Shown here: in pieces, positions 512 through 4,429 of the stretch
Position numbering within the stretch: position 1 is the stretch's first letter
Layout of the letters: each line of letters opens with the position of its first letter
IMG/VR virus record: IMGVR_UViG_2675903429_000009
Strand: one strand, 5' to 3'
Source of the DNA: a virus
Taxonomy: Duplodnaviria; Heunggongvirae; Uroviricota; Caudoviricetes
DNA: 4,515 nt
Position numbers and translations under genes: made by a program
The notes under the pieces: model-generated
Database searches by the model: none
Told to the model about the DNA's origin: nothing
What the model saw: only the letters and a program-made list of their open reading frames with translations

Positions 512-1396
512 TCATCTNNNNNNNNNNNNNNNNNNNNNNNNNNNNNNNNNNNNNNNNNNNNNNNNNNNNNNNNNNNNNNNNNNNNNNNNNNNNNNNNNNN
601 NNNNNNNNNNNNNNNNNNNNNNNNNNNNNNNNNNNNNNNNNNNNNNNNNNNNNNNNNNNNNNNNNNNNNNNNNNNNNNNNNNNNNNNNNNNNNNNNNNNN
701 NNNNNNNNNNNNNNNNNNNNNNNNNNNNNNNNNNNNNNNNNNNNNNNNNNNNNNNNNGTCATTACCGTCAAGATAAGCCACCTCAATTGTGTCCGTTCCC
801 TGTGCTGAAAGCATGTACCATTGCTTATCACTGACTTCATCAAGGCGGGGATCGACAATAATATCCAGTTGTTTGTGGTACGGGTTATATGAACCACTGT
901 TTGTATCGGCACCGAAAGGCGTGGTTGAGTTAACCATTTGCAACGCTCTGTCTTCCAGAGCCGCAGGAACAAGAAGGAATTTTGGCACAATATTCAGCAC
1001 CTCACCGTTTTCATCCCTCTGTGTGCGCATTGCACGGCGTGCAATGCCAAGCCCTGTAGTGCTGACTCCGTTATCAATATCATTTCCGTGTTTTTTGCTG
1101 AACAGCGGTATACCGTCAGAAAGCTTTGTGTTTCCTGTCAGCACCAGATGAACCAGATTACCCACCGTTCTGGCGGCTGCTCGCCCCATTGCCTGTGGGA
1201 TAACTGTTAACTGATTCAGGTCATCGTTAATAATCGCCTGTCGGGTAATGCTGAAAATATTTCCGTAAGTTGCCAGCGCGATTGGTTCGCCACGGTCACT
1301 GGTGGTGATGTATTTATATTCCGCGCCTTCCGGCACTTTGTTTAATGTAGAGAAGCCATTCAGGCCAACACGACGTGCCTCATGGAAGTTTGACAA
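512..1396 (-). CDS. probable phage major capsid protein (3' end uncertain because of the N gap)
   Basis: Long minus-strand ORF (at least 213 real codons before the gap) immediately downstream of, and overlapping, the ClpP-family prohead protease gene, which is the typical protease-capsid gene order. Size is consistent with an HK97-fold capsid protein lacking its own delta domain. The only start codon in frame is TTG (1396-1394) behind an AAAAAAGG purine run; alternatively the ORF is reached by -1 frameshifting from the protease gene. Capsid identity rests on context and general sequence character, not a verified homology hit. Confidence 0.6.
   Translation of the reverse strand: MSNFHEARRVGLNGFSTLNKVPEGAEYKYITTSDRGEPIALATYGNIFSITRQAIINDDLNQLTVIPQAMGRAAARTVGNLVHLVLTGNTKLSDGIPLFSKKHGNDIDNGVSTTGLGIARRAMRTQRDENGEVLNIVPKFLLVPAALEDRALQMVNSTTPFGADTNSGSYNPYHKQLDIIVDPRLDEVSDKQWYMLSAQGTDTIEVAYLDGNDXXXXXXXXXXXXXXXXXXXXXXXXXXXXXXXXXXXXXXXXXXXXXXXXXXXXXXXXXXXXXXXXXXXXXXXXXXXXXXXXR
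518..757. other. assembly gap (240 N) inside the capsid gene
   Basis: Run of N from 518 to 757. Reading-frame continuity across it is unknown, so the 3' end of the capsid ORF (stop at 512-514 in the nominal frame) cannot be trusted. Confidence 0.99.
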
Positions 1397-2505
1397 TGAA
1401 CCTTTTTTCGTCCACTGGCGGAACGTTTCGCCGCTGTGTTCACGGATTTTTCAGCACCACCAGCAAGGATATAAGTAAAATCGCTGCTGCTGTGGGTGAA
1501 TGCCGCGTTTACTATCTGCGAGCGTGTGCTGTAGCTGCCTGTGCTTATGCCGCGATGGGTTAATGATGCCTGTGCCATATCGAAAAGGCTCATCATGGCG
1601 TAAGGGTTGCCGCGTTCTGCCTGTTCATGTCCCAGACGCGCATTAAGCCCCTGACGCATTGCATCGCCGGTTATGTTGCCGTTATCCGTGTACGCGTAGT
1701 AAAGATTTGCGGGGGTGGTTTTGTTTGTCGGTGTCGATTCTTTACCCATAGTGAGTAAAAGGCGTTCGCGTGCATCCTCAACGCTACAGCCTGAATCAGC
1801 AAGACAACTTATAGCCAGGTCGTTATATCTTCCATTGAACGTGCCAAACAATTCACGTATCCCGTTGAGTCGTTCCTGTTCTCCGCTGCCAGTTTTCTGG
1901 CTGATCATGCTTTTAATATTTTCCGGCATATTCGAAAAATCTCCGATTCGTTTTGATTCAATTCTGGCCATTGCTGTAATCGCGGGTATAACCTCATCTG
2001 CGAAGCCATTAGCCTTACACTCATTGCCATCCATCCAGGTTTCCGCCTCCATCATGGCGGTGATTTCCTGTTTGCTCCTGCCCGTTCTTCCGGCGTAGGT
2101 TTCCGCCATCGTGTCGCCCAGCTTGTCCATCAGGTCAGCAAAGCGGCGAACGTCGCCCGACACTCCGGCAGTAACACCACGGGGGGCATGTATCATCATC
2201 ATCGCGTTTTCAGGCATAACGATGTGATCGCCACACATGGCAATAAACGAGGCCATAGAAGCCGCCATGCCTTCAATGTGTACAATTTTCTTTGCCGGAT
2301 GATTTTTCAGGGCGTTATAGATAGCCAGCCCTTCAAAGATGTCGCCACCAGGTGAATGGATGCGAAGATGGATTTCAGGCACATTACCGCACGCGTTGAT
2401 CTCGTCAGTAAGTGCCGATGCTTTTACACCGTACCCGCCGATCTCGTCATAAATGCGTACATGTACAACATCAGCCATAGCCTTAATGGAAAACCATGTT
2501 TTCAT
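1360..2505 (-). CDS. ClpP-family (S14) prohead serine protease with a ~180-aa C-terminal extension (scaffold-like or N-terminal capsid region)
   Basis: The translation contains the ClpP-like catalytic motifs GMAASMAS (Ser) and MMIHAP (His), comparable to ClpP GQAASMGA and MIHQP. ATG at 2505-2503 is preceded by AGGAG 9 nt upstream and overlaps the stop of the upstream small ORF (ATGA). 381 aa. Confidence 0.85.
   Translation of the reverse strand: MKTWFSIKAMADVVHVRIYDEIGGYGVKASALTDEINACGNVPEIHLRIHSPGGDIFEGLAIYNALKNHPAKKIVHIEGMAASMASFIAMCGDHIVMPENAMMMIHAPRGVTAGVSGDVRRFADLMDKLGDTMAETYAGRTGRSKQEITAMMEAETWMDGNECKANGFADEVIPAITAMARIESKRIGDFSNMPENIKSMISQKTGSGEQERLNGIRELFGTFNGRYNDLAISCLADSGCSVEDARERLLLTMGKESTPTNKTTPANLYYAYTDNGNITGDAMRQGLNARLGHEQAERGNPYAMMSLFDMAQASLTHRGISTGSYSTRSQIVNAAFTHSSSDFTYILAGGAEKSVNTAAKRSASGRKKVHCQTSMRHVVLA
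1402..1408 (-). other. candidate -1 ribosomal frameshift slippery heptamer A_AAA_AAG
   Basis: Seen in sequence: the minus strand reads CGA AAA AAG GTT in the protease frame (codons R-K-K-V near the C-terminus), i.e. the X_XXY_YYZ heptamer A_AAA_AAG in the correct phase. The -1 frame continues as GGT TCA TTG TCA AAC TTC CAT..., which is exactly the capsid ORF frame. Confidence 0.4.
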
Positions 2506-2696
2506 AGCCAGGCTCCTAACGTTGCCCTGTACCAGTATTCAACCGCGCTTCTCGCAATCTGCCCTTTCGTGGGTACTGGCATTCCAGGGTGATGACTTTT
2601 AATGAACTGCTGATAGCGTTCGAGCTTCTCCATAGTTCCGGCGTCTATGTGCACTGTTGCACTTTTATCCGGTTTTCTGCTGTTGTTCTCTGGCAT
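2502..2696 (-). CDS. small ribbon-helix-helix-like protein, translationally coupled to the prohead protease
   Basis: The ORF is open from 2729, but the likely start is the ATG at 2696-2694, which sits 7 nt after a GGAGG (2708-2704); the ATG ATG at 2729 has no Shine-Dalgarno sequence. 64 aa. The pattern of a short beta-strand (ATVHID) followed by two helices (AGTMEKLERYQQFIKS and TKGQIARSAVEYWYRA) resembles the Arc/MetJ/CopG fold by eye. The stop overlaps the protease start (ATGA). Confidence 0.45.
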   Translation of the reverse strand: MPENNSRKPDKSATVHIDAGTMEKLERYQQFIKSHHPGMPVPTKGQIARSAVEYWYRATLGAWL

Positions 2697-2769
2697 AAGT
2701 CTGCCTCCGTTATGATTAACGGGCATCATTATTGATCGATAAAACTGGTAAATAAATCATTTTCTATCT

Positions 2770-2799
2770 AAAAATCAGATTATGTATTTTCTGATTTTT
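2770..2799. promoter_or_regulatory. perfect 10-bp inverted repeat AAAAATCAGA-N10-TCTGATTTTT (operator-like)
   Basis: Seen in sequence, 40-70 bp upstream of the RHH/protease/capsid operon start. On the minus strand it overlaps a weak sigma70-like candidate (ATGACA, about 16 nt spacer, TAATCT). Confidence 0.4.
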
Positions 2800-2893
2800 G
2801 TCATACCAGCAAAAGAATTGACTAATTATTGCCACGCCAGCACAATTAAGACTCATCATTTCGGTAGTGGCAGTATCCTTTGTCGCTGACAAA

Positions 2894-2928
2894 GCGCCTC
2901 CGGTGGCACCATCGGGGCGCTTTTTTTT
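2894..2928 (+). terminator. strong intrinsic terminator, plus-strand orientation
   Basis: GC-rich hairpin GCGCC(T)CCGGTG-GCAC-CATCGGGGCGC (2894-2920, about 11 bp with one bulge and one G-U pair) followed by T8 (2921-2928). An alternative hairpin GGCGC-T8-GCGCC (2916-2933) is followed by TGTTTTTT. In minus-strand orientation the hairpin is followed by only three U residues, so it is mainly a plus-strand terminator. Confidence 0.6.
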
Positions 2929-3126
2929 GCGCCTGTTTTTTGTAAATGCTTTCGGGAACGTTCCGGCGTCGAACAAAAAACAACCTAATTCGACACTAAA
3001 AATTTTTATTTTGCCATATATCAATAACTTAAACTGGTGGTGATGGTGACATAAAAATCAAAAAATACGCCTTTTTCCGCGAACCGCCCGCCCCGTGGAC
3101 AGGCCACCCCCACCAGGAGTACCTAC

Positions 3127-3149
3127 AAAAAAGCCGGATTGCTCCGGCT
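3127..3149 (-). terminator. intrinsic terminator of the orf81-ssb operon
   Basis: 7-bp stem AGCCGGA/TCCGGCT with loop TTGC (3132-3149). On the minus strand it is followed by UUUUU (3127-3131) and starts 15 nt after the ssb stop codon. Confidence 0.55.
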
Positions 3150-3164
3150 TCTGTCACTCGTTGC

Positions 3165-3587
3165 TTAAAACGGTATGTTATCCCCGTACGGATCATCATT
3201 CCCCGCCTGTTGTTTGGCCCTGTTCAGTGCATCAGTGGCCTGCCCCTGTTGGCCTTTTTTACCGCCCGGTCGCGCCGTTCTGGCACTGATTACACTGTCT
3301 GCGATAACCTGCCAGCCCTGCCGCGTTTCTCCGTTCTGGCCTGTCCACTGGCTTACCTGCATGTTACCCGCCACGCTCACCAGCTCGCCTTTCTGGTGCT
3401 TTGCCAGTGCGTCAGCCTGTCTGCCAAACGCCAGGACGGATAACCATATCGTCGCCGTTCCGTCATCTGCCTGGCTGCACGGCAGGGGAACCGCCATACT
3501 CGCCATCGTCATTTGCGTACCCTTGCTGGTGGTCTTTAACTGCGGGTCAGCCACCAGCCGCCCGTAAGCCGCTATCTGTGCTGTCAT
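3165..3587 (-). CDS. ssb: single-stranded DNA-binding protein (SSB family), 140 aa
   Basis: The N-terminal OB-fold region aligns by eye with E. coli SSB (IAAYGRLVADPQLK versus VILVGNLGQDPEVR; WLSVLAFGRQADALAKHQKGELVSVAGNMQVSQWTGQNGETRQGWQVIADSV versus [50 protein letters not shown]). A Gly/Gln-rich linker and an acidic tail ending NDDPYGDNIPF match the conserved SSB DDDIPF tip. GGAG Shine-Dalgarno sequence; the ATG overlaps the upstream stop (ATGA). Confidence 0.85.
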   Translation of the reverse strand: MTAQIAAYGRLVADPQLKTTSKGTQMTMASMAVPLPCSQADDGTATIWLSVLAFGRQADALAKHQKGELVSVAGNMQVSQWTGQNGETRQGWQVIADSVISARTARPGGKKGQQGQATDALNRAKQQAGNDDPYGDNIPF

Positions 3588-3874: not shown

Positions 3875-4103
3875 CTTCACCTGTTCACCTTTTGCAATTT
3901 TCCCTTTTTATTCATGATGTTAATGGGTTAACAGTTTCACAAAAACTATTCACCAACTGTTCACCACTGTTCACCCTTAAAGCTCAATAAAGAATCAAAA
4001 AGGTGAACAGTGAATAGTTTGGTGAACAGTTCATAAATAACTGTTCACCCTATAATATACTGATATAAAAGACATTTATTGCAGGGTGAACAGTGGTGAA
4101 CAG
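3875..4103. repeat. iteron array / putative origin of replication (P4-type TGTTCACC octamers)
   Basis: Seen in sequence: perfect CTGTTCACC at 3881-3889, 3957-3965, 3967-3975 and 4041-4049; perfect inverse GGTGAACAG at 4002-4010, 4021-4029, 4085-4093 and 4095-4103; degenerate copies at 3875-3881, 3947-3954 and 4009-4017. Adjacent copies are spaced 10 bp apart. The array is flanked and interspersed by AT-rich stretches (3841-3870, 3895-3950, 4051-4080). From memory, TGTTCACC is the phage P4 type I iteron bound by alpha protein at ori and crr. Confidence 0.75.
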
Positions 4104-4132
4104 TTATTCCATAAGTTTAATTTTTTCCATCG

Positions 4133-4429
4133 TCATTTGTGACCTATTGCACATGATGGCATCCAGTCTTCTGAATCCTCTGTCAGGGTCACATTTGAAC
4201 GCAAACCGTGCTTCGTTTTCCGTTTCATATACTCCCTGCCATATTCCGCCATTGCCCCCGGCATATCTTTACCGAAGCGCGTCAGTGTTACAGGTTTACC
4301 GAATCCGTGTGCCCTCATATATGCCAGATAGGCGTGATAAAGATACCTGCGCGGACTGAACGGAATAATTTCGGCATTACCCACTAACAGACCATCACAC
4401 ATTACCGACGACATGAGGTGTACTGGCAA
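4133..4429 (-). CDS. small ORF resembling the C-terminal region of phage/plasmid primase-helicases (possible gene fragment)
   Basis: The translation contains YLYHAYLAYMRAHGFGKPVTLTRFGKDMPGAM, which matches by eye the conserved Y-x-x-Y-x-x-W-x-(5-6)-x-P-x-S/T-x-x-x-F-G motif found near the C-terminus of P4-alpha/D5-type primase-helicases. The start is weak: TTG at 4429 or ATG at 4414, neither with a clear Shine-Dalgarno sequence, and an in-frame TAG lies at 4439-4441. The two other minus frames are open to the window edge, so a frameshifted longer gene is possible. Confidence 0.4.
   Translation of the reverse strand: MPVHLMSSVMCDGLLVGNAEIIPFSPRRYLYHAYLAYMRAHGFGKPVTLTRFGKDMPGAMAEYGREYMKRKTKHGLRSNVTLTEDSEDWMPSCAIGHK

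Follow-up and report, generated by a model that had tools for sequence, protein, structure and literature searches.

The window, by which we mean the whole 4,515-nucleotide stretch of DNA that was analysed, carries genes on its minus strand only (Table 1). Judged by its gene content, it is a Gram-negative PICI-type phage satellite of the E. coli type. The features that mark such elements were assessed on the orthologous island L001 together with the content of the window; these are an integrase, an alpA-like regulator, a primase or rep gene with an origin, a cos site or other packaging function, a size of about 10 kb, and an attachment site. The element agrees with this picture. The window itself shows the C-terminus of the primase with its Pox_D5 domain, iterons, SSB, cos, and a capsid gene. 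The L001 island adjoins tRNA-Ile and holds an integrase, a small HTH gene, an Icd-like gene, the primase, SSB, and the operon that is the subject here.

Table 1. Features of the window, with positions counted from its first nucleotide.
Feature	Position	Strand	Remarks
Protease/capsid fusion gene	512-2505	minus	ClpP-like prohead protease fused to major capsid protein; HK97-type capsid
86-aa gene, phrog_1561		minus	after the protease/capsid fusion
64-aa gene, phrog_4934	2502-2696	minus	first gene of the operon; RHH-like by fold comparison
Predicted operon promoter	2728-2756	minus	assigned by reading the sequence
Conserved upstream module	2757-2781	minus	YAATCTR-TTTTT-nGATAGAAA, about -36 to -60
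Gene-proximal dyad arm	2770-2779		AAAAATCAGA; reads TCTGATTTTT on the coding (minus) strand
Dyad spacer	2780-2789		TTATGTATTT, 10 bp
Distal dyad arm	2790-2799		TCTGATTTTT
Divergent sigma-70-like promoter	2818-2846	plus	TTGACT-17-CACAAT; from the promoter scan
Short plus-strand unit, about 78 nt	2851-2930	plus	strong intrinsic terminator, stem 2891-2923 followed by U8
SSB gene	3165-3587	minus	
81-aa gene, phrog_1231		minus	between origin and SSB
Iteron origin	about 3880-4110	both orientations	eight copies of GGTGAACAG/CTGTTCACC
Primase C-terminus	4133-4429	minus	Pox_D5 domain

The operon begins with the gene for a 64-aa protein. This gene has an ATG at 2696 with a GGAGG Shine-Dalgarno sequence, its RefSeq orthologue is a 195-bp CDS, and its stop codon overlaps the start codon of the protease (ATGA). 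In its predicted 5' UTR is a hairpin, CCGTTA-ATCA-TAACGG (2706-2723), that is conserved in the loci of the 64-aa type; the 3' side of this hairpin enters the GGAGG sequence, and it could therefore modulate translation. The protease/capsid fusion that follows has suffered, relative to the E. coli orthologue in L001, a 13-bp deletion near 1440. The resulting frameshift gives open reading frames of 381 aa and 294 aa in place of one of about 629 aa, and the same split is seen in contig L009, which is 99.97% identical to the window. In the window's lineage, the capsid gene has probably decayed to a pseudogene. The capsid part of the fusion gene also contains 240 consecutive masked positions (N, 518-757). 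Contig L009 has 174 bp (5620-5793) that are missing at 241/242 of the window. It also bears, at 746-3554, a second, tandem satellite-like element. This element has its own promoter block, from which the dyad is absent; its phrog_4934 gene encodes 69 aa, its protease/capsid fusion is intact at 637 aa, and a gene for 180 aa is divergent.

On the other side of the control region, 2971-3131 matches the cos regions of lambdoid phages (1720a-02, CP-1639, mEp460, and Stx2 phages) at 73-91% identity. Within it, the minus-strand sequence GGGCGGGCGGTT (about 3083-3094) is what we take, by its likeness to the lambda cohesive end, to be a lambda-like cosN; its orientation is that of the operon. Together, SSB and the cos region are 87% identical to strains of the CFT073 lineage (clone D i14, Nissle). 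A terminator-shaped stem with a T-run follows SSB on the minus strand at about 3126-3150 (orientation read directly), and in several relatives the promoter block of the operon comes directly after the SSB terminator, with no cos in between. In contig L005, a gene for a PerC-family transcriptional regulator (1666-1938) takes the place of SSB, directly upstream of cos and of a control region that bears the dyad in the class B form described below. Between the plus-strand terminator and the cos-like region of the window is another perfect 10-bp inverted repeat, TGTTTTTTGT / ACAAAAAACA (2934-2982), whose 29-bp spacer contains the palindrome CGGGAACGTTCCGG. Further away, the origin-like iteron array sits downstream of the primase gene and includes a 36-nt inverted repeat (3942-3977/4083-4118). 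An Rfam scan of the whole window returned only spurious matches to miRNA models, on the iterons, and none at the dyad or at the plus-strand RNA.

The dyad itself was first noticed in a preliminary description of this DNA as a perfect inverted repeat, and this proved correct: its arms are complementary at 10 of 10 positions around a 10-bp spacer. Its assignment to the control region of the small-protein/protease/capsid operon is likewise supported. The distance, however, had been given as 40-70 bp upstream of the first gene, which fits only an in-frame ATG at 2729 that is unsupported. Counted from the start codon at 2696, which has the Shine-Dalgarno sequence, the distance is 74-103 bp. Nor does the dyad overlap the conserved core promoter: it spans -49 to -78 relative to the predicted start site, and such a span is atypical for the operator of an autorepressor.

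The window contains the dyad once only, even when three mismatches are allowed, and it is single-copy in each full island examined. Of random windows, drawn as first-order Markov sequences with the composition of the window, 6.7% contain a perfect inverted repeat with arms of 10 bp or more and a spacer of 3-20 bp. In random 468-bp sequences with intergenic composition, the same criterion gives 1.3%. The dyad is only moderately unusual because its arms are A/T-rich. Chance statistics by themselves are, of course, no proof of function.

Several familiar kinds of site were compared with the dyad and set aside. By reading against the consensus sequences, it is not a LexA box, a CRP site, or an Lrp site. 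It is not a cosB or terminase R site; those were taken to lie within roughly 50-170 bp of cosN and to travel with cos, and the dyad is about 285-325 bp from the cosN-like sequence.

Relatives were collected from IMG/VR by scanning with a 30-nt anchor that adjoins the dyad, the dyad itself being excluded, and by scanning again with a profile of the 64-aa protein. With seven E. coli loci, these scans gave about 147 loci, some of them from the same contig fetched twice. Neither the protein nor the promoter anchor gave a match when a species-representative genome collection was scanned with each of them. The loci fall into classes. Class A comprises the window and four contigs nearly identical to it, all with the perfect dyad. 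In class B, which is the common form in E. coli, AATCAGA-N10-TCTGATT is kept with outer 3 bp that are asymmetric; here, the distal arm reads TCTGATTATT. The replication modules of class B islands vary (a primase or a RepA-family helicase), and the dyad is the same in each. The operon and its promoter block are also present in class C and in more distant relatives, but these have no distal arm; in its place is a minus-strand terminator (sometimes that of SSB) or unrelated DNA. At the equivalent position, class C has two direct AATCT units 9 bp apart (AATCTnATTAATCT). In complete E. coli genomes, the region 2690-2960 gave 307 matches, of which 144 span 80% of it or more; the partial matches, among those listed, end at about 2782, inside the dyad spacer.

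How sequence divergence is distributed between classes A and B is informative. It is 9-11% over 2687-2799, from the 5' UTR through both arms, then 44% in the next 18 bp and 31-36% across the 70 bp that follow. Thus, the conserved block ends exactly where the dyad ends, a pattern that argues for constraint on the dyad. The core TCTGATT is retained in all class A and B loci examined but one. Within class B, symmetry-related positions have changed in single arms, C2776T in about five loci and G2793A in one. These changes never occur together, which is to say that they are uncompensated. The spacer varies at 2784-2786 among relatives, and one class B locus has a spacer of 9 bp.

Conservation had been suggested in the preliminary description as a way to check the dyad, and the answer is divided. 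Sublineages A and B, though diverged, have each kept the two arms; class C and the distant relatives have no distal arm. Loss of the dyad from loci that retain the operon had been named there as an argument against an operator, and part of this is what is seen. In over half of the orthologous loci, operon and promoter persist without the distal arm, and the dyad as such is therefore dispensable for the operon. At best, it is a lineage-specific and probably protein-binding regulatory site, not an essential operator.

The proximal arm is another matter, as it is part of a promoter block found in all relatives. The predicted operon promoter has a -35 hexamer TTTATT (2756-2751), a spacer of 17 bp, and a -10 hexamer AATAAT (2733-2728), and would start transcription near 2721. 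Its -35 is weak (3/6), and it scores below the threshold of a consensus promoter scan. It is conserved as TTTAYY-17-RATMMT in 40 of 40 distinct promoter blocks. These 40 versions, from the roughly 147 loci, align without gaps, and read on the coding strand YAATCTR-TTTTT-n-GATAGAAA...TTTAYY (-35)-TACCACTTTT-nnn-GATC-RATMMT (-10), with AATC and GATC invariant. The proximal arm, at about -49 to -58 from the predicted start, overlaps the invariant AATC (plus-strand GATT, 2778-2781), which is made up of G2778, A2779, and the first two bases of the dyad spacer.

The invariant GATC (2734-2737) is between the -35 and -10 hexamers, within a near-palindrome, TTATCGATCAATAA. It suggests expression that is sensitive to Dam methylation or coupled to replication, or else a second operator in the promoter spacer. 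The adjoining TCGATAAAAC resembles the high-affinity motif of H-NS. An alternative promoter, ATGACA-16-TAATCT, overlaps the dyad; it was rejected as a general promoter because class C has no -35 hexamer there.

Directly beyond the dyad, and pointing the other way, is the only sigma-70-like promoter that the scan reported. Its class B counterpart is TTGACG-17-CAGTAT or TTGACG-17-CAATAT, where both hexamers are kept and the spacer has diverged. The predicted plus-strand start is near 2853, so placed that the centre of the dyad (2784.5) is about 68 bp from it and about 64 bp from the predicted minus-strand start. The unit downstream is a candidate small RNA. A stretch at its 5' end (AAGACTCRTCAT) is conserved, a hairpin lies within it, and it closes with a strong terminator whose stem is conserved and whose loop is variable. 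It folds at -32.3 kcal/mol (z -4.45), and its class B version at -30.9 kcal/mol (z -4.80). The candidate RNA matches no Rfam family, and no RefSeq annotation is found at its place in E. coli genomes.

This RNA unit is conserved in classes A and B only. In every locus that bears the distal arm, the plus-strand promoter and terminator follow at a fixed distance, and loci without the arm have neither. Classes A and B are, of course, one clade, so that the association of arm and RNA counts as a single evolutionary event. The RNA is antisense to any read-through from the SSB and cos side. It occupies the position where class C has a plain terminator, and may thus act as an insulator. A duplex-folding search for targets inside the islands ranked 2151-2190 first in the window, but this site was not reproduced in class B and the lead was given up.

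A protein that might read such a site is encoded next to it. The 64-aa protein and its relatives of 68-70 aa constitute phrog_4934, a family to which no function is assigned. Pfam gave no significant family for the protein, and Foldseek found no match in the PDB for its model. An exhaustive profile search of 1.84 billion representative proteins found 12 relatives, which leaves no deeper family that could be used to place it. The AlphaFold monomer model is of moderate confidence (pLDDT 70), with helices at 19-35 and 44-63 and an unstructured N-terminus; a monomeric RHH subunit would be expected to look like this. A profile search of the PDB gave weak matches (E 1.6-1.8) to ParD antitoxins of the CopG/Arc/MetJ family, in alignments that cover the region modelled as the second helix. 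Fold comparison gave RHH matches that are weak but consistent, the best being the omega repressor at 15% identity. An RHH fold is, from these models and matches, plausible.

RHH operators are expected to contain short repeated units, and such units are found, as AATCAGA-N10-TCTGATT in classes A and B and as direct AATCTnATTAATCT in class C. They are also expected to overlap promoter hexamers. This is not found: counted from the predicted starts, the dyad occupies about -49 to -78 for the operon promoter and -54 to -83 for its divergent neighbour, and touches no -35 or -10 element of either.

The explanation that we prefer, and hold only tentatively, is that two back-to-back promoters share the dyad as an upstream binding region, whose occupant is probably the RHH-like protein. 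The weak but deeply conserved TTTATT-17-AATAAT would drive the 64-aa gene and the protease/capsid fusion on the minus strand, and TTGACT-17-CACAAT would drive the terminator-ended RNA of about 78 nt on the plus strand. The proximal arm belongs to an old upstream module (AATCT plus T-tract) that precedes every operon of the family; the distal arm is a lineage-specific mirror copy, restricted to loci with the divergent RNA unit. The AATCWGA units would most probably be recognised by a small DNA-binding protein that works as a dimer. Foremost among the candidates is the RHH-like protein encoded by the first gene, two dimers of which would bind together as those of omega, Arc, and Mnt do. Binding would couple or modulate both promoters, and in relatives without the distal arm the same protein would use the direct-repeat AATCT units. 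The sequences directly show the anatomy, the pattern of conservation, the co-occurrence with the RNA unit, and a weak RHH fold match; where transcription starts, which protein binds, and in which direction regulation runs are inferred.

The operator for a dimeric regulator that the preliminary description had envisaged is retained in part. Its place in the control region and the keeping of both arms in classes A and B agree with it; the absence of the distal arm from many relatives and the distance of the dyad from the promoter core do not. Other observations also weigh against the preferred explanation. Class B tolerates mutations in single arms and one spacer deletion. A site without overlap of -35 or -10 is unusual for RHH repressors. 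The arms are 13 bp and 18 bp from their respective -35 hexamers, and hence are not in mutual helical phase. The lineage with the perfect dyad carries a broken capsid gene. Last, since the arms are A/T-rich, short repeats of the AATC type easily arise by chance.

Could the same anatomy arise with no dedicated regulator at all? The arms might be A/T-rich DNA, curved or resembling UP elements, one for each divergent promoter and contacted by the alpha subunit of RNA polymerase, the palindrome being a by-product of two similar upstream elements placed back to back. We judge this unlikely, if the most probable of the rivals. UP elements have two subsites, and the layout of the proximal arm at -49 to -58 followed by AAAA at -42 to -39 matches this. 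Class C matches, by reading, 7 of 11 positions of the distal subsite; the -35 hexamer is weak, as would be expected of a promoter that relies on upstream contacts; TCTGATTTTT is found at -54 to -63 of the plus-strand promoter; and the distal arm exists only where there is a second promoter. But the two arms differ by 5 bp in their distance from the -35 hexamer, the match to the consensus is only partial, and it is AATC, not the T-tract, that is invariant, which suggests base-specific recognition. Rather less probable, in our estimate, is a dyad with no function as a dyad, that is, a palindrome derived by chance or duplication in an A/T-rich spacer and inherited beside a constrained promoter block. 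About 7% of random windows contain such a palindrome. Most relatives do without the distal arm, the uncompensated changes and the spacer indel do occur, the outer 3 bp are asymmetric in class B, and the perfect dyad is found in the lineage with the broken capsid gene. An idle palindrome would not, however, lead one to expect that divergence leaps from about 10% to 44% precisely where the distal arm ends, or that the TCTGATT core should persist in all but one of the class A and B loci examined.

A regulator encoded elsewhere might instead use the dyad, be it an AlpA-type activator, a late regulator of the helper phage, or host IHF or Fis. By binding at about -64, it would switch on the capsid operon upon helper induction. 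A weak -35 with a dyad centred near -64 fits an activator-dependent (class I-like) promoter, and AlpA is the known activator of Gram-negative PICIs, with expression induced by the helper phage (PMC6092414). The full islands have no second dyad near alpA or elsewhere, so that nothing ties the dyad to AlpA. The dyad is the same across class B islands whose replication modules differ, and the operon persists in relatives that have no distal arm. As for IHF (core WATCAANNNNTTR), AATCAG resembles by reading the WATCAR core, yet the sequence AATCAG-ATTA-TGT has no TTR element, and the key C of the core (2776) is T in about five class B loci and varies in class C; an IHF site was rejected. So was a late promoter of the P2 Ogr/P4 Delta type, as TGT-N12-ACA, read directly, is absent from both strands of 2757-2810. 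To an outside regulator we give only a small chance. Smaller by far is the chance that the dyad acts as RNA, in the form of a weak bidirectional hairpin terminator or pause site that would insulate the operon promoter from transcription on the cos side, or insulate the divergent unit. An A5-stem-loop-stem-T5 layout is that of a bidirectional terminator, the two strands fold at -7.8 or -9.7 kcal/mol (z -3.4), and class C has a true minus-strand terminator in the same place. Against this, the stem has only two G-C pairs and the loop 10 nt, where an intrinsic terminator has a G+C-rich stem, a short loop, and a U run; the terminator scan did not report the dyad, and as an intrinsic terminator it was rejected. 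In class B the T and A runs are interrupted. The dyad is, moreover, upstream of both predicted starts, and hence may not be transcribed.

The preferred explanation, in which an RHH-like protein binds a site shared by two promoters, has partial counterparts in well-studied systems. The omega repressor, an RHH protein of plasmid pSM19035, binds WATCACW heptads that work in direct or inverted orientation. The units of the dyad, AATCAGA/AATCTGA, resemble these heptads, a likeness to be used as a lead only, the motifs being short, A/T-rich, and found in related sequences. The heptads of omega have to be contiguous and to overlap the promoter; in the window, the centres of the two units are 17 bp apart, and both lie upstream of the -35 hexamer. 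Identity between omega and the 64-aa protein is only 15%, and binding here is a proposal. In the immI region of phage P22, the RHH proteins Arc and Mnt are encoded adjacent to their palindromic operators, which they bind between the divergent promoters Pant and Pmnt, co-regulating both. The arrangement proposed for the window would be alike, with a gene for an RHH-like protein beside back-to-back promoters and a palindrome between them. The operators of Arc and Mnt, however, overlap core promoter elements, as the dyad does not. One of the divergent units here is a short RNA that looks non-coding, and there is no sequence relationship.

The late promoters of P2 and its satellite P4 offer a different comparison. 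They have a weak -35 and a partial dyad near -55, bound by the activators Ogr or Delta. Here too, a satellite's morphogenetic operon has a weak -35 and a dyad centred upstream. The Ogr/Delta motif is absent, though, the element is PICI-type rather than P4-like, and no Ogr or Delta homologue was seen in the full island L001. In kind, the element is the same as the EcCICFT073-like Gram-negative PICIs. L001 shares with them an integrase, an AlpA-like HTH protein, a primase with an origin downstream, a cos site, a gene for a capsid protein, and a position beside a tRNA gene. The element differs in that no rpp gene follows the cos-like site, unlike in the Rpp-type PICIs of the literature, and in that its capsid protein is a ClpP-protease/HK97-type fusion preceded by phrog_4934.

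The islands, their cos sites, the frequency of capsid genes among them, and AlpA have all been described (PMC6092414, PMC6739421, PMC9026076, PMC10111431), and most PICIs carry capsid genes (PMC6092414, PMC10111431). These four reports describe no promoter, operator, or RNA for this "late zone". They leave the timing of capsid gene expression in Gram-negative PICIs unexplained; what they cover is the autoactivation of AlpA at the left end.

In kind, then, the dyad is an ordinary candidate for an operator or upstream element; what is new is its context, since the late region of these Gram-negative PICIs proves to have an uncharacterised, conserved promoter block and perhaps a small RNA. Within the control of the capsid operon, the dyad is a minor and lineage-specific part. 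The promoter block, the candidate DNA-binding protein, and, in one lineage, the candidate small RNA are supplied by this analysis as targets for experiment. It is a doubtful idea that together they form a new regulatory module of Gram-negative PICIs, in which a narrow family of RHH-like phrog_4934 proteins would bind AATCW repeats upstream of a Dam-site promoter to control the capsid operon and, in one lineage, a divergent small RNA adjacent to cos as well. Were it true, phage satellites of this type would have a protein/RNA switch for the expression of their late genes.
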